Below are positions 22,511 through 45,778 of a stretch of 64,000 nucleotides of DNA, one piece after another; within the stretch, counting starts at the first letter, position 1; each line of letters starts with the position of its first letter. This DNA is from Planctomycetota bacterium (GTDB lineage: Bacteria > Planctomycetota > SZUA-567 > H5-PLA8). The notes below the pieces were generated by a model, which saw nothing but the letters and a program-made list of their open reading frames with translations, was not told where the DNA came from and did not search any database. The DNA lies in contig JBAXUS010000004.1 of assembly GCA_037129555.1 (NCBI GenBank), positions 19,726-83,725 on the forward strand. The letters run 5' to 3'. The position numbers and the translations under genes were made by a program.

Positions 22511-22762
22511 GCAACCCTTTCCGGGAGTCCACCTGTTCCCAAAAGAACACGAACTGAATCGCTACTTAAATCGACATTGTGCGATGTTTTATCGACCGTT
22601 TATAAGCGGTCAAGAACACTTTCTTTCGCACCAATCTTAATGAAATTATATCACACTGTACAAACAACTAAATAGACGTTATCGGGCTAAGTATATCTTT
22701 CCGGTGCACGTGAGCAGTGAGGTCGAATAGCCGCTTACTGACGTGCGCGGCTCTTGGGCGTT

Positions 22763-23776
22763 TCATTTCGCGCTGGGATTTTTGGGCATGTTGGCGAGGA
22801 AAAATTCGACGGTTCGCTTCACGCCGTCTTCGTTGCTGACGACGGGCTTGTAGCCGAAATCGCGGCGCGCTTTGTGGATGGAGTAGTAATGCGAGCACGA
22901 CAGCGTCTTCGCGAGGAAGCGCGTCATTGGCGGTTCTTTGCGGCGGCGGATCAGCCAAAACGCGGCTTCCAAACACGCGCCGACATAGTACGCCGTTCCC
23001 GTGCTTACCGAGCGTTGCACTTTCGGCAGACGCATGCGCCGGAAGAAGTCGTTGATCCAATCCCAAAGGACAACCGGTTGGCCATCGGAGATAAAATAGG
23101 CTTCACCCGCAACGCGTTTGCCGGTCATCACGTCGCACGCCAGCAGATGCGCGACGGCGGCGTTGTCAACGAACGTGAGATCGACTTTGTTTTTTCCGTC
23201 ACCGACGATTTTCAGTTTGCCGGATTGGTTGCGTTGAATTAATCGCGGGAGCAAATGGTTGTCGCGCGGGCCCCAGATTAAATGCGGACGCAAGGCGGTC
23301 GCGAAAAGGCCATCGCGTCCACTGCTGCCCAGCACCATCATTTCGGCTTCAGCTTTGGTGCGCGAATAGATGTTGTAGAATGTCTCAGGGTACGGCGTTT
23401 TTTCGTCGATGCCGCATTCGTCTTTCATGTCGAAGACGACGCTGGGCGAACTGGTGTAAATCAACTTCGGGACGCCGCGCCGTTTGCAGCCTTCGATGAT
23501 GTTGCGGGTGCCGAGGACATTGATGCCGTGGAAGAGTTTCGGGTCGCCCCAAATTCCAGCGAGGGCGGCGACGTGGAATACTGCGTCCATGCCCATGCAG
23601 GCGGTCGAGCAATCGCTGGCACTGCGGATGTCGGCTTGCAGGCACTCGGCTCCAAGCGCTTCGAGTTCCGGATAGCGGTTACGACCGATCACGCGCACGC
23701 GGTCTCCGCGGCTGACCAGAAGTTCTACGATTTTACGGCCCAAAAATCCGCCGCCACCGGTGACGAGTGCTTTCAT
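22763..23776 (-). CDS. NAD-dependent epimerase/dehydratase (3-beta-hydroxysteroid dehydrogenase/isomerase family)
   Basis: MKALVTGGGGFLGRKIVELL is a Rossmann GxxGxxG motif, and the fold is SDR-extended. 337 aa. Confidence 0.8.
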   Translation of the reverse strand: MKALVTGGGGFLGRKIVELLVSRGDRVRVIGRNRYPELEALGAECLQADIRSASDCSTACMGMDAVFHVAALAGIWGDPKLFHGINVLGTRNIIEGCKRRGVPKLIYTSSPSVVFDMKDECGIDEKTPYPETFYNIYSRTKAEAEMMVLGSSGRDGLFATALRPHLIWGPRDNHLLPRLIQRNQSGKLKIVGDGKNKVDLTFVDNAAVAHLLACDVMTGKRVAGEAYFISDGQPVVLWDWINDFFRRMRLPKVQRSVSTGTAYYVGACLEAAFWLIRRRKEPPMTRFLAKTLSCSHYYSIHKARRDFGYKPVVSNEDGVKRTVEFFLANMPKNPSAK

Positions 23777-26143: not shown

Positions 26144-26306
26144 TTCCCCTCTCCCCTTGAGGGAGAGGGCCGACGAGACAGCCTTTCCGTCTCGCGGGGT
26201 GAGGGGTAAACGCTAGGATTAATCCATGCGCTTGGATTAATCAACGCCATCCCCTCACCCCGCGAAGGAGTACCTTCGTCGGCCCTCTCCCCCAAGGGGA
26301 GAGGGA
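26144..26306. repeat. ~165-bp imperfect inverted duplication (two ~80-bp arms, each with two nested hairpins) centred on tandem GGATTAATCC palindromes
   Basis: Left arm CCCCTCTCCCCttgAGGGAGAGGGCCGACGAgacagcctttccgtctCGCGGGGTGAGGGGtaaacgctaGGATTAATCCA. The reverse complement of the right arm is CCCTCTCCCCttgggGGAGAGGGCCGACGAaggtactccttcgCGCGGGGTGAGGGGatggcgttGATTAATCCA, about 80% identical. Intergenic, between the gspF terminator and the AMP-ligase start. Confidence 0.6.
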
Positions 26307-40240: not shown

Positions 40241-40987
40241 ATGGTAAATGCAGACGAGCTCATTCCGCGGGCGGCGATAGACCGCTTCTTCAGTAAAAAG
40301 TTGACGGGCACACAGCTGCTCCGTAGTCTGGCCGTGTATCGCGGCTGGCAGGTCCCGGCACGTCTTGAAAACATGGTGCCGGTTTACACTGAATTTGATC
40401 TTGGCAACAACGTCACTCACTTCTTTTTGTTCTCGGACAAAGACGCGTATTTGGAATGTAAGAAAAATATCGGGGGCGATATTCTCGGCGATTATTTCGT
40501 CGGCAATGTATCGGGCTACAGTGCGTTTGACACCATCAAAGACACCGTCGATATCGTCAACATCAATCCGTACAGCCCGCAGGAAATTCATTACACGCGT
40601 GAGCAGTTGCACCGTTTGAAGACGTGGGCGGGGATTGTGAAGACGGAGATGGCGCTTGAGACGGTGCATTCATCGATGCGCGGATATGCCACGCTGCGGA
40701 ATTTCGACAAGTACTGGTTCATCATGGAAGACGAGCAATTTGTCGTGCTGGCTCCGGATGGGCGCGGTCGAAAACTGGCGGCGTTGTTCACGGCTGAAGA
40801 CGCGCTGGATTTGTTCATGGAACGCAATCCAAAACCGAACCGCCGGGCGATCCCGATTTCGGGCGAGGCGCTGTTTAAGGCGATCCGCAAAATGCCGCTG
40901 GAAGGCATGGTGTTCAATTGCTGCGGCCCGACGAAGCCGCGCTTTTTTCCGCTGGCGTTTGCTGCGGAAATTTCGGACAAGGGTTGA
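40241..40987 (+). CDS. Hypothetical protein (248 aa)
   Basis: Clean ATG start and normal composition. No confident domain assignment. Confidence 0.45.
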   Translation: MVNADELIPRAAIDRFFSKKLTGTQLLRSLAVYRGWQVPARLENMVPVYTEFDLGNNVTHFFLFSDKDAYLECKKNIGGDILGDYFVGNVSGYSAFDTIKDTVDIVNINPYSPQEIHYTREQLHRLKTWAGIVKTEMALETVHSSMRGYATLRNFDKYWFIMEDEQFVVLAPDGRGRKLAALFTAEDALDLFMERNPKPNRRAIPISGEALFKAIRKMPLEGMVFNCCGPTKPRFFPLAFAAEISDKG

Positions 40988-41005
40988 TTTTTTTAGTCTT
41001 GCACA

Positions 41006-41082
41006 AGAGCCGCGCGCGCAAGCAAGCGGCCATTACCGATAGAATGCAACGAACTTGGCCGCTTGCTTGCGCGCGCGGCTCT
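41006..41082. repeat. GC-rich palindromic element, copy 1 (27-bp perfect stem, 23-nt loop)
   Basis: AGAGCCGCGCGCGCAAGCAAGCGGCCA-ttaccgatagaatgcaacgaact-TGGCCGCTTGCTTGCGCGCGCGGCTCT, between convergent genes. The same stems recur at 44269..44345. Confidence 0.6.
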
Positions 41083-41107
41083 TCGCGATGTTTTAAAGCG
41101 CCGGAAA

Positions 41108-42907
41108 TTATTTAGGCGTGATGACAATGACACCGAGATCCGAACGCCAAACGGCTTTGGTTCGAGACGCGAGATCGTCAAGGAGTTGCTTGAACGGGTA
41201 GCGTCCTGGGGCGAGGAGTTCGGCGTCCTGGGGCAAGAGTTCGAAATGAGCTGCGGCGTCGGCAGAGTCTTCGAGCAGGATGTTCACCTTCCCCATTTTC
41301 CGTAATACCCCGATTACTTTTCCGGCAGTCAGTCCGCGACCATCCCAATCGACGGGTGTGTTAAGAGCGGAGTCGAGAGCGGTGAGCCAGGCTGCGGGTT
41401 CGGGTGGTTTGCTGGTTGAACGCCACGCGGCGATGAGGTCCAGCATGCGGCGCAATGTCGCTTCATTTCCGTAGGCAAGCAACCGTCCGCGCACGACTCG
41501 GACATGAGCTTCGGTGTTCAATGCCGGAAAAAGAGCGAGATGCGACTCGAGTGCGTCGAGCAGTTTCTTCCGCGCGGCAGCATCTGATTTCTCGGAGTAT
41601 TCGGCAGGCGCTGGATAGAGGAAAGCGACATCGGCTCCGCAGGTGGATTGTGGCGGAGATGAGTGTGGCGGGCGGATTTGAATTGCAATTGTTCGGTCCG
41701 GTGTGATCGTGTAGCTGAGTTTGTAGTCGAGGAGCGATTTGGCGCGGCGTTCGAACCAGCGAAGCGCGAGGCCCAGCGGCGCGCCTTGATTCAAATTGAG
41801 GTTCAAGGTCGCCAATTGCAAGTCAACCGTGCGCAACGCGTCTTTAGCAGAAAGGGTTGTGCCGTCCGCACTTTTCAACACCACGTCGAGATTCTTCTTA
41901 CGAAACTCACCGACTGCGTCCCACGGATTGTCGCTGGAAATCTGGACGTTGCATGGTTCGGCCAGTTTGCTCAAGACGGTTGCGTCGTCACTGCGGTTCG
42001 TGCGGGGCCAGATCGAATCGGGAGAGTGGCCAGGCAGAAGAGCAATCAGGCGAACGGCTTGGTGGATCGACGTTTCCGTCCCGGCGATGATGATCGCGCT
42101 GGGTGCGGTGTGGATCTCGGTGCCTGCTGCGAAAAAAGGGAGGAGCTCTTTTTCAACGCGCGCGGCCTCGTCGCGGCTGAGTTCAAGATGGCTCCAGTCG
42201 ACGGTGTAACGTTGAGCAGCAAGGCGCTTCGCGATTTCTTCAGACGTTATAAGAAGGCAGTCGCCGCGTGGGATGATGTGCGCGTGGGCCATTGTGGCGA
42301 GTGAATTTAAACTGGCTCCAACGGACATCAATGAATTGAACGCCGGGCCGGGCTGAGGTCCGAAAAGCTCTTCGTTCAAGCCGATCTCTGAGTTGACCGA
42401 TGCAGTATCAATTTCAATTTTGATGCCGAGTTTTTGACACACATCCAGCAACGTCTTAATGGGAAGAACCTCGCCCGCTGCGTTCTTCGTCCACACGACG
42501 GTATTGACTGCGGTCTTTTCAAGCGCGGCCAGCAGGGTTGGATCGGAGGGCAGATAGCCGTCATATTTCACTAGAATTTTTGCGCGAAGACCGCGCGACG
42601 TGGCGGCGATTTCAGGGTCGGGATCGTTGACGAATTCTGTTGCGACAGGCAGCACCGTCGGACCTTGACCGATGATTTTTGCCAGCGCTCGTTCGCGGAT
42701 GTCGTATGCGTCGCTGCCCAATTCCTTGAACCACGCACGGGCCATTTTGGTTTCATCGGCGGATAACTCTCGTGCCTTAAACTTCAACGCGGGATCGGAG
42801 TCTGGCGTGTTATCCTCGGCGCAGTGGGGCGCGAGTTGGACTGACAACGAGAGGATGAGCCAGCAACCGCGGCGCACAGCCTGTGAAAAACGTGAAGGGT
42901 TCGGCAT
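41108..42907 (-). CDS. Hypothetical secreted protein (599 aa)
   Basis: N-terminal signal-like CWLILSLSVQLAPHCA. No recognised domain. Confidence 0.5.
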   Translation of the reverse strand: MPNPSRFSQAVRRGCWLILSLSVQLAPHCAEDNTPDSDPALKFKARELSADETKMARAWFKELGSDAYDIRERALAKIIGQGPTVLPVATEFVNDPDPEIAATSRGLRAKILVKYDGYLPSDPTLLAALEKTAVNTVVWTKNAAGEVLPIKTLLDVCQKLGIKIEIDTASVNSEIGLNEELFGPQPGPAFNSLMSVGASLNSLATMAHAHIIPRGDCLLITSEEIAKRLAAQRYTVDWSHLELSRDEAARVEKELLPFFAAGTEIHTAPSAIIIAGTETSIHQAVRLIALLPGHSPDSIWPRTNRSDDATVLSKLAEPCNVQISSDNPWDAVGEFRKKNLDVVLKSADGTTLSAKDALRTVDLQLATLNLNLNQGAPLGLALRWFERRAKSLLDYKLSYTITPDRTIAIQIRPPHSSPPQSTCGADVAFLYPAPAEYSEKSDAAARKKLLDALESHLALFPALNTEAHVRVVRGRLLAYGNEATLRRMLDLIAAWRSTSKPPEPAAWLTALDSALNTPVDWDGRGLTAGKVIGVLRKMGKVNILLEDSADAAAHFELLPQDAELLAPGRYPFKQLLDDLASRTKAVWRSDLGVIVITPK

Positions 42908-43043
42908 GGCGTTTTAATCTCTGTTAACGATGTCCCGAGAAATATGAGGGGTTTGTTTTTTGCTTCTTCAATCTTCTTTTTCGCTGGTGTATTATAACAA
43001 CCCTCTTACCCAGAGTGGACACAAATATTTTTGAGGAATTGGA

Positions 43044-43913
43044 ATGACGATGAGTGAATCGTGTGCGGCGTGCGGATGTAAGATTACAAACAACCAGACA
43101 GCGGACGGTATCGCGGTGCGGCACGGCGCGAAATTATATTGCTCGGAATGCGCCAGTATGATTCTTCCGCCCGAGGAGTTGGCACGGCTCACGAATCCCA
43201 CTACAGCGAAAGCCAGCGCTCCGGCATCTGATTTGATGGCTGACGACGACATTCTTGCTGAGGAAGCGCCTCCGTCCCAACCCAAGCCTGTGGTGAAAAA
43301 AGCGGGAAGCACAGTGGCTCCGGCGCTAGCGAGATCGGCTGGATCGTCAGCGAAAACGCAATCGCCGTCGAGTTCGCGAGTGCAACGAGCAGTGAGTATC
43401 CCGGCGTCTCGCGATTCCAGCGAGTCGAAGCGGCGCGTCCCGACGCGCAGCGCTTCGGTTGTGCCGTCAGCGCCTTCGCCATCGCAATCGGCAGGTGCGA
43501 GCCGCCGCTACAACAAATTGCCGTCGTCGTCCCGGACCGACACTGCGGCGGGCAATGCGCGCGATGATTCAGGGCGCAACCGGAACAAGAAGAAAGACTC
43601 AACGGGCTTGTACATCGGATTGGGTGTCGGTGCGGTCGTGTTGATGGTCGGCGCTTATTTTGTGTTTGGATCGAGCAAACCGAAAGTCGTGGCGAAAGAG
43701 AAGCCGAAAGAATCGTTCGTCGATAACGACAAAACACCGTCATATGAATACGCGCAACGCGGCGACGATTTTCTGAAAAAGAAAGACACGCCCAGCGCTG
43801 TCAGGATGTATGGCAAAGCGGCTGAACGCGCGGAGAAAGAGGGCAATACGACGAAGGCGAAGGAGTACAACATGCGGTCGGTTAGCGCGGAGAAGGCTTC
43901 GACGCTGCACTAA
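43044..43913 (+). CDS. Hypothetical single-pass membrane protein with N-terminal C4 zinc ribbon and Ser-rich linker
   Basis: CAACGCK...CSECAS zinc ribbon, a Ser/Ala/Pro-rich disordered region, TM LYIGLGVGAVVLMVGAYFVFG, and a short TPR-like C-terminal region. The architecture resembles zinc-finger anti-sigma factors, but no sigma factor gene is adjacent. Confidence 0.5.
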   Translation: MTMSESCAACGCKITNNQTADGIAVRHGAKLYCSECASMILPPEELARLTNPTTAKASAPASDLMADDDILAEEAPPSQPKPVVKKAGSTVAPALARSAGSSAKTQSPSSSRVQRAVSIPASRDSSESKRRVPTRSASVVPSAPSPSQSAGASRRYNKLPSSSRTDTAAGNARDDSGRNRNKKKDSTGLYIGLGVGAVVLMVGAYFVFGSSKPKVVAKEKPKESFVDNDKTPSYEYAQRGDDFLKKKDTPSAVRMYGKAAERAEKEGNTTKAKEYNMRSVSAEKASTLH

Positions 43914-43925
43914 TTAACGTCGATT

Positions 43926-44147
43926 TTACTTCACGTTCTTCATGTGTTTATCTTTGAGAATCTTGATCTGCTCATCGTTTGGGCGCGAGTAGTATGGGCT
44001 ACCTTCGTCGGTTTCGGCGGGGTTGGAATAGGGCATGTTGCGGCTTAAAAGAAGGCCGCCGATCAGGCCCATTATAAGCATGACGATGACGACGATTTTG
44101 CCGTTGGTGCCGGATTCGTCCCCGGTTGATTTTGTTTCATCTGACAT
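43926..44147 (-). CDS. Small membrane protein (73 aa)
   Basis: ATG with GAGG upstream. One TM IVVIVMLIMGLIGGLLL. Plausible but unverifiable. Confidence 0.4.
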   Translation of the reverse strand: MSDETKSTGDESGTNGKIVVIVMLIMGLIGGLLLSRNMPYSNPAETDEGSPYYSRPNDEQIKILKDKHMKNVK

Positions 44148-44268
44148 GGTTTTGCCTCGGTGTTTTTTCTACTGCCTACTGCTACGAACCGACATCGAAT
44201 ATGAATCTTAATCCAGAGCGGGCGCATTCCAACATGAAAACGATGAGTACGTTTGCGTTCAGAGCAAA

Positions 44269-44345
44269 GAGCCGCGCGCGCAAGCAAGCGGCCATTACTG
44301 GTAGGGTGTCACAATCTTGGCCGCTTGCTTGCGCGCGCGGCTCTT
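44269..44345. repeat. GC-rich palindromic element, copy 2
   Basis: AGAGCCGCGCGCGCAAGCAAGCGGCCA-ttactggtagggtgtcacaatct-TGGCCGCTTGCTTGCGCGCGCGGCTCT. Stems are identical to copy 1 and the loop is ~65% identical. It lies in the divergent region upstream of purA. Confidence 0.6.
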
Positions 44346-44488
44346 GCTTTTCAAAATCCAAACAATGCACTTGACGGCGGAGGCCTTCAACTCAATAATC
44401 GTTCAACGGTCAGGCCGGGTAGTTCCCGCCCTGACCGTTTTTCTTTTTTGAGACCTCGTGACGAGCAAATTTTAAGCAGGGAGGCCAT

Positions 44489-45778
44489 GTGCCGGCAACA
44501 GTGATTGTGGGTGTGCAGTGGGGAGATGAAGGCAAGGCGAAGGTGCTGGACGCCCTCGCAGCGGAGACCGATATCGTCGTTCGTTATCAAGGTGGATCGA
44601 ACGCCGGCCACACCGTGGTCGTTGGCACGGAGCGCTATGCGTTTCATCTCGTGCCATCCGGCATTCTCCACGACAATAAAGTCTGCGTGATTGCGAATGG
44701 CTGCGTGGTTGAGCCTGAAGCACTGTTGCGCGAAATCGATGCGCTGGCCGCACGCGGCGTGAAGATTTCGGGCGAGAATCTGTTGCTTTCGGATCGCGCA
44801 CATCTCGTCATGCCCTACCACCGCATCGTCGATCAACTCGCTGAGAAGTTGAAGGAGAACAGCGGGCAGACGAAGATCGGGACGACCGGTCGCGGCATCG
44901 GCCCGTGTTACATCGACAAAGTTGCACGCTCGGGTCTGCGCGTCGTCGATTTGTTGCGGCCGAGTTATTTCATCGAACGCGTGAAAAGCCGCCTGGCTGA
45001 ATTGAATCCGCTGATCGTCAACGCGTACCAAGGCGACGCGCTGGACGCGAACAAGATTGCGGACGAAGTGCTGGCTTACGCGCCGCGCTTGAAGCCGTTC
45101 ATCGCCGACACGGCGTCGTACATCACCGATGCGCTGGCGCATGGCAAGCGACTCCTCTTAGAAGGCGCGCAAGGTTCGCTGCTCGACGTCGATCACGGCA
45201 CGTATCCGTACGTCACGAGTTCGAACGCGACGGCGGGTGGTGCGAGCACGGGGAGTGGGATTTCGCCGCGCAAAATCAATCTCGCGATTGGTGTCGTCAA
45301 AGCGTATACGACGCGCGTCGGATCGGGTCCGTTCCCGACTGAATTGACAGACGAAATCGGCAAAGGCCTTCAGACGCGCGGTGCGGAGTTTGGCACGACG
45401 ACCGGACGCACGCGGCGCTGCGGTTGGTTCGACGCGGTGGGTGTCAAATACGCGGTGGATGTGTCGGGGATCGACGCGCTGGCGCTGACGAAACTTGATG
45501 TGCTGACCGGCGAAAAAGAGATCAAGGTGTGTACGTCGTACACGATTGATGGCGTATCGACGACGCGCTTCCCGGCGGACCCGGAGAAGATCGCGAATGC
45601 GAAGCCGGTGTATGAATCGCATCCGGGTTGGGACGAGTCGATCGATGATGTGCGCTCGTTCGACAAGCTCCCGGCGAATGCGCAGAGCTATGTGAAGTGG
45701 CTCGAGAAGTTGTCGGGCGCGCCGATTCGGTATGTCGGTGTTGGCCGCGCGCGCGATGCGATGATTGAACGGAAGTAG
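44489..45778 (+). CDS. purA: Adenylosuccinate synthetase
   Basis: VIVGVQWGDEGKAKVLD, GGSNAGHTV and GTTGRGIGPCY motifs. 429 aa. GTG start with AGGGAGG upstream. Confidence 0.9.
   Translation: MPATVIVGVQWGDEGKAKVLDALAAETDIVVRYQGGSNAGHTVVVGTERYAFHLVPSGILHDNKVCVIANGCVVEPEALLREIDALAARGVKISGENLLLSDRAHLVMPYHRIVDQLAEKLKENSGQTKIGTTGRGIGPCYIDKVARSGLRVVDLLRPSYFIERVKSRLAELNPLIVNAYQGDALDANKIADEVLAYAPRLKPFIADTASYITDALAHGKRLLLEGAQGSLLDVDHGTYPYVTSSNATAGGASTGSGISPRKINLAIGVVKAYTTRVGSGPFPTELTDEIGKGLQTRGAEFGTTTGRTRRCGWFDAVGVKYAVDVSGIDALALTKLDVLTGEKEIKVCTSYTIDGVSTTRFPADPEKIANAKPVYESHPGWDESIDDVRSFDKLPANAQSYVKWLEKLSGAPIRYVGVGRARDAMIERK

Follow-up and report, generated by a model that had tools for sequence, protein, structure and literature searches.

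We analysed a 64,000-nucleotide stretch of DNA from a metagenome-assembled genome of an uncultured Planctomycetota bacterium (assembly GCA_037129555.1, contig JBAXUS010000004.1, positions 19,726 to 83,725 of the forward strand; hereafter the window), in which two long hairpins lie on either side of a three-gene segment. Each hairpin consists of two inverted copies of a small hairpin unit, and this unit is a dispersed, mostly extragenic repeat, present in many copies and in several phyla, with an inner stem kept by compensatory changes. The two hairpins represent a new, doublet-organised subtype of a known but barely described family of elements resembling repetitive extragenic palindromes (REPs), probably spread, by analogy with related systems, by a rare HuH-type transposase. 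Our preferred explanation, to which we assign a probability of about 70%, is that they are doublets resembling REPINs (REP doublets forming hairpins), built from a dispersed REP unit of the class 3 type and propagated by a HuH-Y1 enzyme encoded elsewhere.

Each hairpin is 79 nt long, and the arms are identical, with 28 bp of perfect pairing that exceed the 27-bp stem of the preliminary description. The 27-mer AGAGCCGCGCGCGCAAGCAAGCGGCCA has exactly four occurrences in the window and none in 100 dinucleotide-shuffled windows, so that the two copies reported at first are real; the second of them, initially placed at 44269-44345, was shifted by one base. The copies lie 3262 nt apart in a common orientation and share 90% identity over 79 nt. 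The loops are indeed co-oriented and 23 nt long in both copies, with 15 of 23 positions identical by direct reading (65%), and six of the eight differences are transitions. By our own calculation, the probability that all eight differences fall within the 23 loop positions out of 79 is approximately (23/79)^8 = 5e-5; the contrast between arms and loops is therefore not due to chance. Folded as single-stranded DNA, copy 1 reaches -44.7 kcal/mol (z -9.6) and copy 2 reaches -45.9 kcal/mol (z -10.9).

The genomic sites of both copies are those first described. Copy 1 occupies a convergent spacer, 18 nt past the stop codon of gene 40241-40987 (+) and 25 nt from that of gene 41108-42907 (-). Copy 2 occupies a divergent spacer, with gene 43926-44147 (-) on one side and purA (44489-45778, +; Pfam Adenylsucc_synt) on the other; the -35 hexamer of a conserved purA promoter follows 25 nt after its end. 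Neither reading of the sequence nor a terminator scan revealed a T-run after either hairpin arm, and the long hairpins were not called as terminators. An intrinsic terminator was ruled out on this lack of a T-run.

Table 1. Positions of the hairpins, their parts and related units in the window, and loci of the related units in Legionella adelaidensis.
Feature	Position	Strand	Description
Hairpin doublet, copy 1	41005-41083	none	Two inverted units, tails (feet) outward; 28-bp perfect arms; 23-nt loop
Hairpin doublet, copy 2	44267-44345	none	Arms and loop polarity as in copy 1
27-mer AGAGCCGCGCGCGCAAGCAAGCGGCCA	41006-41032	+	
27-mer AGAGCCGCGCGCGCAAGCAAGCGGCCA	41056-41082	-	
27-mer AGAGCCGCGCGCGCAAGCAAGCGGCCA	44268-44294	+	
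27-mer AGAGCCGCGCGCGCAAGCAAGCGGCCA	44318-44344	-	
Unit, A subtype, left arm of copy 1	41006-41030	-	Minus strand is GCCGCTTGCTTGCGCGCGCGGCTCT
Unit, A subtype, right arm of copy 1	41058-41082	+	
Unit, A subtype, left arm of copy 2	44268-44292	-	
Unit, A subtype, right arm of copy 2	44320-44344	+	
Spacer (loop), copy 1	41033-41055		Minus strand is AGTTCGTTGCATTCTATCGGTAA
Spacer (loop), copy 2	44295-44317		Minus strand is AGATTGTGACACCCTACCAGTAA; length and polarity as in copy 1
Singlet unit GCCGCTTACTGACGTGCGCGGCTCT	22730-22754	+	A:T variant of the covarying pair
L. adelaidensis loci L104, L105, L152, L153	NZ_LR134420.1, NZ_LR134418.1		

Each arm is itself a small hairpin unit of 25-26 nt, containing the inner palindrome GCCGC-N12-GCGGC followed by TCT. 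On the strand that ends with the tail, the unit reads GCCGC-TT-NC-TNNC-GN'-GC-GCGGC-TCT and folds as (((((..((....))..)))))..., which fits the definition of a REP as a short imperfect palindrome (about 20-40 nt) that can form a stem-loop. On the strand that begins with the foot, it reads [C/A]AGA-GCCGC-GC-NC-GNNA-GN'-AA-GCGGC-CA, so that an unpaired foot of 4 nt is followed by a 5-bp stem, which a 2x2 internal loop separates from a 2-bp stem closed by a tetraloop. The foot is conserved as [C/A]AGA (CAGA in 53 and AAGA in 46 of 100 doublet flanks; AAGA in all five units of the window) and does not match the canonical REP foot GT[AG]G, so that the unit is REP-like without being a canonical GTAG REP. 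A structure-aware scan of all the DNA fetched, 1.33 Mb at that stage, gave 508 strand-hits against 23 in shuffled DNA and separated two subtypes. Subtype A, with the tail-last internal loop TT/GC, comprises about 208 units, including those of the window, and subtype B, with TC/TC, about 24 units.

To survey the unit more widely, we scanned one genome per bacterial species (596 Gb) with the pattern GCCGCTTNCTNNCGNGCGCGGCTCT, which specifies 21 bases. At least 103 stretches holding 125 units were found, for a chance expectation that we estimate at about 0.3. The matches in the first 80 rows came from at least 37 assemblies, mostly of Planctomycetota, with other assemblies labelled Verrucomicrobiota, Acidobacteriota (Bryobacteraceae, Solibacter), Chloroflexota and Armatimonadota; a related metagenome-assembled genome, JBBRQD01, alone accounted for at least 17 stretches in these rows. 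The window itself holds five units in 64 kb, where 0.02 are expected. In the species scan, only 2 of the 125 units are of the exact arm variant present in the window (loop TTGC, with G:C as the variable pair). This variant is common in two Joint Genome Institute (JGI) metagenomes, with 38 stretches, which correspond, after removal of contigs common to both samples, to about 29 loci (about 18 distinct doublets and about 11 singlets). The preliminary description had held that a dispersed-repeat interpretation would weaken if the genome contained only the two copies and the segment were conserved everywhere; the two copies are not the only ones, the singlet at 22730-22754 being a third occurrence in the window and the metagenomic doublets of the exact variant further ones.

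The search pattern leaves a single pair of the unit free, pair 8:15, at which compensatory changes can be followed. This pair is Watson-Crick in 118 of the 125 occurrences (61 A:T, 30 C:G, 27 G:C), the remainder being G:T or T:G (5) or mismatched (2). Counted by sequence type (n = 26), there are 8 AU, 7 CG, 5 GC and 4 GU/UG types and 2 unpaired types. In 500 shuffles, neither the pairing nor the covariation score was ever as high as observed, and every Watson-Crick type was found in several phyla. Moreover, in many doublets one arm departs from the other at the tetraloop and in some cases at the covarying pair, so that the long stem would contain mismatches. It is thus the small unit hairpin that is under selection, and not the 28-bp long stem; the long stem is perfect in the window because both arms are of the local master sequence.

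After de-duplication, the structure-aware scan yielded 107 singlets and 57 dimers. Fifty of these dimers are inverted with their tails outward, three have their tails inward and four are in tandem. The modal gap between cores is 29 nt, as in both copies of the window. Ten of the tails-out dimers combine one A and one B unit, and B is paired with A in 14 dimers in total. Two inverted REPs separated by a short spacer and able to form one long hairpin define a REPIN, and this is the arrangement found both in the window doublets and in the dimers of the family. In 14 doublets of modal geometry from two planctomycete lineages, pairwise identity is 91% in the arms and 52% in the spacers. These spacers nevertheless share their length, their polarity and the 5' end CCAAGAYYGT, with variable centres. 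The loops of the window conform to this pattern; copy 1, with its spacer and arm ends CCAAGTTCGT...GGTAATGG, fits the family consensus of conserved ends and variable centre. The common length, polarity and 5' end argue that the doublet, including its spacer, shares one ancestor and propagates as one unit, this being deduced from homology.

Perfect 28-bp inverted repeats at the ends of small, multi-copy elements are also what would be expected of miniature inverted-repeat transposable elements (MITEs) of a DDE-type insertion sequence (IS), whose terminal inverted repeats would be read as double-stranded DNA. We consider this highly unlikely for the 79-nt elements. Among 100 flanks, conservation stops abruptly just past GGCTCT and one G or T, with neither a target-site duplication nor any shared outer sequence; the outer motif CTGAACGCTTAC, considered as a possible part of the element, was dismissed as it occurs in only 6 of the 100 flanks. 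In addition, single arms are common and conserved on their own (the 107 singlets), the arm holds an internally covarying hairpin that would have no role in a double-stranded terminal repeat, and the arms of a doublet are often non-complementary at 2-4 positions. No DDE transposase with these ends was found in 1.9 Mb.

Then, we looked at the position of 147 classifiable elements relative to genes, using crude gene calls based on open reading frames (ORFs). Intergenic elements make up 74% of them, where non-coding DNA represents 12.5%. They fall in 31 convergent, 63 co-directional and 14 divergent spacers, against 157, 506 and 159, respectively, among 822 background spacers: convergent spacers are favoured and divergent ones disfavoured. 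Singlets in co-directional spacers show no strand bias, with 23 in sense and 20 in antisense orientation to the neighbouring gene. This pattern is that of a repeat dispersed at the DNA level and not of a strand-specific RNA signal. About one quarter of the elements were called intragenic by the crude gene caller, and some of these could be genuine insertions in frame, of the kind reported for other REPs. One singlet (L017:3545-3640) lies within the apparent N-terminal signal-peptide region of an ORF (MKNRVRSPKNTGRLLTCAALVFSVLTFAA…).

The preference for convergent spacers, the position of copy 1 at 18-25 nt past two convergent stop codons and the high stability of the hairpins could also be taken as the mark of signals serving the host, such as factor-independent bidirectional transcription barriers, stabilisers of mRNA 3' ends or sites for nucleoid proteins or gyrase, spread by selection for their function; co-option of REPs for roles of this kind is known (background in PMC6006769), and some REP/BIME elements of Escherichia coli have been reported to act in these ways. 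This explanation is unlikely in our view. A T-run is absent after both hairpins; divergent promoter regions hold copy 2 and 13% of the intergenic elements; and the even split of singlets between sense and antisense fits it poorly. Relatives with the same genes lack the hairpins, one of them having a spacer of only 23 nt at the site of copy 1. What is conserved is the small unit hairpin and not the long stem, many doublets having mismatched arms. Furthermore, a unit that is found in at least five phyla and also in phage genomes looks more like a selfish repeat than like a signal tied to one locus.

Constant stems with variable loops of fixed length would also fit genes for structured non-coding RNAs, such as antisense RNAs or processing substrates, with the loop as a variable specificity region, and at the covarying pair G-U wobbles occur on one strand only (5, against 1 A-C). 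We nonetheless regard such genes as extremely improbable. Rfam searches at gathering and permissive thresholds returned only sub-threshold matches to generic long hairpins, e.g. MIR535 and Plastid-psbJ-2, and no family. The element is palindromic, with the unit on both strands, and has no preferred orientation relative to genes; no promoter-like site lies where it could drive its transcription, and no loop complementarity was noticed. The REP-like nature proposed at first, in preference to a terminator, is borne out by an arm that occurs in many genomes, is extragenic, forms singlets as well as inverted doublets and lacks a T-tract.

Which REP-like family this is can be read from the work of Quentin, Siguier, Chandler and Fichant (2018; PMC6006769), who described a rare "class 3" group of HuH-Y1 enzymes (TnpAY1) in Planctomycetes, Acidobacteria and Proteobacteria. 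In Planctomycetes, Acidobacteria and Legionella, the genes of this group are bordered by unusual secondary structures with a CnGA foot (PMC6006769). The associated repeats are known from one paragraph and one supplementary table of that paper: Table S1 gives CAGAGCCGCGACCGTTAGGGAGCG for Solibacter and CCGAGCCGCGACCGTAAGGGAGCGGA for Legionella pneumophila, with the fold ((((..((....))..)))), and about 600 copies of the structure are reported in Solibacter (PMC6006769). We found that the sequences of this table are subtype B of our analysis. Written from the foot, a typical planctomycete A unit is CAGAGCCGCGCACGTCAGTAAGCGGC and the window unit is AAGAGCCGCGCGCGCAAGCAAGCGGC; the typical A unit and the Legionella sequence agree at 19 of 26 positions and have the same foot position, stems, internal-loop size and tetraloop. 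The singlet of the window, 8 nt past the stop codon of the minus-strand gene 22763-23776, also folds in agreement with the shape of Table S1. No later literature on class 3 HuH-Y1 enzymes or their repeats was found.

The structures thus have in common a foot of 4 nt and a GCCGC/GCGGC stem, joined through a 2x2 internal loop to a 2-bp stem with a GNNA tetraloop, forming a weak hairpin close to GAGCCGCGACCGTNAGGGAGCGG. Their host range (Planctomycetes, Acidobacteria, Legionella) and high copy number are also shared, and the published B subtype co-occurs with the A subtype of the window. As both fold and sequence match, and as A and B units pair with each other in the same genomes, we assign the window hairpins, on this resemblance, to the class 3-associated REP-like family of Quentin et al. 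Some features differ. The internal loop of the window subtype is GC/AA, against GA/GA in the published structures; the inverted doublet of fixed geometry is an arrangement not described in PMC6006769; and no class 3 gene was seen near any copy examined here. The range is also wider here, extending to Verrucomicrobiota, Chloroflexota, Armatimonadota and phage contigs.

Better-known systems resemble the window elements in part. Classical REPINs and their REP-associated tyrosine transposases (RAYTs; Bertels & Rainey 2011, PMC3116915; PMC3337134) present the same two inverted REPs with a short spacer forming a long hairpin, and the doublet is likewise the replicating unit, extragenic and multi-copy, singlets being probably remnants. 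However, they have a GTAG foot and are associated with class 2 RAYTs (groups 2 and 3 of Bertels), the genome having a cognate RAYT gene, usually in single copy, with the same REPs on its flanks, and they are described as species-specific, whereas the window unit is nearly unchanged across phyla. The REPs of Escherichia coli and the bacterial interspersed mosaic elements (BIMEs) that they form (Y and Z REP types, TnpA-REP) also show two subtypes pairing in alternating orientation, tandem clusters (here with a 67-nt period, in contigs L159 and L192) and a preference for 3' and convergent intergenic sites; their sequence is different, the unit stem being much weaker and shorter here and its foot not GTAG, and binding of IHF, gyrase and DNA polymerase I is a known role of BIMEs. 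In GTAG/CGTC-tagged repeats (Di Nocera et al. 2013, PMC3733652), we find again a short stem-loop that has an unpaired tag on one side and a short CA/CCA-like tail on the opposite side, a dominance of inverted dimers and a location mostly between co-directional and convergent genes, but the tag of the window units, [C/A]AGA, is neither GTAG nor CGTC and their stem is broken by an internal loop. Finally, the subterminal hairpins of IS200/IS605 elements (IS608, ISDra2) are small and imperfect too, with a 5' tetranucleotide guide read on single-stranded DNA by a Y1 HuH enzyme. In contrast to these, no transposase gene lies between the hairpins here, the arms are identical inverted copies and not distinct ends, and the copy number appears far above that of any IS.

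By analogy with IS200/IS605 TnpA, IS608 and the TnpA-REP of E. coli, a class 3 HuH-Y1 enzyme would bind the small unit hairpins on single-stranded DNA, use the foot as a guide, and then cut and rejoin. In this way it would copy or transfer singlets and doublets to intergenic sites that tolerate them. Arms would stay perfect as loops diverge because only copies with intact arms keep propagating while the centre of the spacer is free to drift; identical arms with diverged loops are in fact the normal state of this repeat family. Effects on neighbouring genes, such as a 3'-end barrier at copy 1 or an altered promoter spacing at copy 2, would be secondary, and nothing suggests that the hairpins affect their neighbours in the window.

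Several points weigh against propagation by a class 3 enzyme. The link with the enzyme comes from one paper and from sequence resemblance; the mobility of the units is deduced and was not seen between close strains; and the unit count covers 64 kb of the source genome. The foot of the window units is AAGA where the published one is CnGA, with 53 C to 46 A at this position in the family. Relative to local GC skew, singlets show a weak strand bias (51 vs. 29, P ~0.02, with loci that are not independent). No ORF for a class 3-like or other cognate HuH-Y1 enzyme was detected in the window or in 1.89 Mb of unit-bearing DNA, from scans of every ORF of at least 50 amino acids with strict and relaxed forms of the class 3 motifs (NHVH ... 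W[TA] ... YV[VI]xEQ), and an all-versus-all clustering of ORFs revealed no recurrent protein family beside the units except phage structural genes. In addition, phmmer found no match for an approximate IS200 TnpA query, and no transposase lies within 20 kb on either side of the B units of Legionella adelaidensis. The sole RAYT-like ORF (contig L063; Pfam Y1_Tnp, 22.6 bits, just below the cut-off) is flanked by its own GTAG REPs. The lack of an enzyme gene near the units is expected if the enzyme is single-copy.

A bolder extension of this explanation is that the unit is the cis element of one horizontally spreading REP/HuH-Y1 (class 3) system, present in at least six phyla and in phages, whose doublet replicator evolved in planctomycetes. 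The phyla meant are Planctomycetota, Verrucomicrobiota, Acidobacteriota, Chloroflexota and Armatimonadota, together with that of Legionella, in which the 25-nt recognition hairpin is almost unchanged. We put it forward tentatively, as possible but doubtful. If true, this would be the first REPIN population tied to class 3 enzymes, and a counter-example to the view of REPs as species-specific and vertically inherited.

The B-type unit was also found in 61 stretches of contigs classified as viral in IMG/VR (L154-L214, e.g. L185:3800-4200). About 24 of these stretches share capsid, portal and terminase genes, which points to one phage lineage with clusters of units in an intergenic gap. Phages are a possible vehicle for the spread of units between hosts. 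Two contigs (L159:1326-1676 and L192:13140-13490) carry tandem clusters with a period of 67 nt (or 136 nt), made of the B-type unit and truncated "foot" fragments GTTTCCGAGCCGCGCCT. Clustered regularly interspaced short palindromic repeats (CRISPR) were ruled out for these arrays, where the whole period repeats at 89-96% identity without unique spacers; the arrays are BIME-like clusters. In PLSDB, a query with the two-subtype doublet matched only dispersed B-type units in the "plasmids" 9 and 11 of Legionella adelaidensis NCTC12735. These replicons carry recA, ribosomal protein genes, purA, mutS and others, and are evidently chromosome fragments. The units sit there between housekeeping genes, one of them upstream of purA, as in the window. 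A 4.6-kb contig (L149, Ga0137411_1275315) in which two inverted doublets stand 2.6 kb apart and pseudo-ORFs mirror each other on the two strands was considered as a REPtron and rejected: it is a palindromic contig without real genes, most likely an assembly artefact seeded by hairpins.

We then considered the three genes between the two copies (41108-44147), for which the preliminary description had suggested a segment that could be excised or rearranged by recombination. Two co-oriented copies with 90% identity over 79 nt and 3262 nt apart could serve as recombination sites around a mobilisable or invertible cassette, and one Logan contig (L107, 3243 nt) begins and ends inside the hairpins. 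The comparison with relatives leads us to reject this proposal almost completely. The window and two relatives (L108 and L109), whose proteins are about 50% identical (48-51% for the 599-amino-acid homologues), share the same gene order: purA, genes for products of 73 amino acids (a small membrane protein), 289, 599 and 248 amino acids, a peptidyl-prolyl isomerase (cyclophilin) gene and DUF1501. The 3.2-kb segment is thus present in both relatives with its outside neighbours, and no unit was found in their orthologous spacers. On the purA side, the sequence of both is uninterrupted where the window has copy 2. At the site of copy 1, L109 has only 23 nt between the convergent genes and L108 (9830-10090) carries an inverted repeat that is unrelated, its arms of about 40 nt (…CGGCTTTTAAACATCGAATCGCGCGAATCTGCGCGGATAAA…) being separated by about 150 nt, so that this spacer appears to have been colonised by different palindromic elements in different lineages. 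The conservation of gene order in relatives without the hairpins indicates that the genes are the conserved part, and that the hairpins are separate, later and lineage-specific insertions that mark no cassette boundary. Moreover, distant homologues of the 599-amino-acid protein retain a divergently oriented upstream partner gene, the other doublets of the family are scattered singly beside unrelated genes, and no Pfam match, recombinase, transposase or HuH gene was found in the three-gene segment. The ends of the Logan contig are an assembly break at the repeat. Homologous recombination between two 79-bp direct repeats is physically possible, but nothing that we observed points to it.

For annotation, these hairpins should be masked as dispersed repeats, and not recorded as terminators, small RNA genes or cassette boundaries; they also break short-read assemblies, as in the Logan contig. 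The two subtypes, the fixed doublet geometry, the covariation of the inner stem and the unusually wide cross-phylum range, phages included, are new for this family, and together they make the little-known class 3 HuH-Y1 group an attractive system for studying how REP-type repeats spread between lineages. The slight change of the unit across phyla and its presence in phages are potentially surprising, given that REPs are usually described as species-specific.

Other structured elements were observed in the window, in which no tRNA was detected. At 44371-44450, upstream of purA, a promoter-like sequence (TTGACG-17 nt-AATAAT) is immediately followed by a hairpin (AACGGTCAGGCCGGG/CCCGCCCTGACCGTT) and a T-run, the end of which is 39 nt from the purA start. 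The two hexamers and the 52-nt block of hairpin and T-run are identical in the two relatives (L108:6525-6640 and L109:4300-4400, minus strands), despite a protein identity of about 50%, and the 17-nt spacer varies. No Rfam family corresponds to this leader hairpin, which is a candidate purA leader or attenuator, or a very short small RNA. A second, unrelated repeat at 18790-18859 is a dimer of a classical GTAG-tagged REP (GTAG and AGCCGAAT / ATTCGGCT), with a 4-nt loop, 24-nt arms and a 22-nt spacer, and folds as DNA at -27 kcal/mol (z -8.9). A further copy of its unit was found at L126:190-213, so that the organism has at least two REP families. Finally, a nested palindrome of 159 nt lies at 26147-26305, with outer arms of 30 nt, CCCTCTCCCCTTGAGGGAGAGGGCCGACGA, that are palindromic themselves, and inner arms of 15 nt, TCGCGGGGTGAGGGG / CCCCTCACCCCGCGA; it probably belongs to another repeat family or is a MITE.

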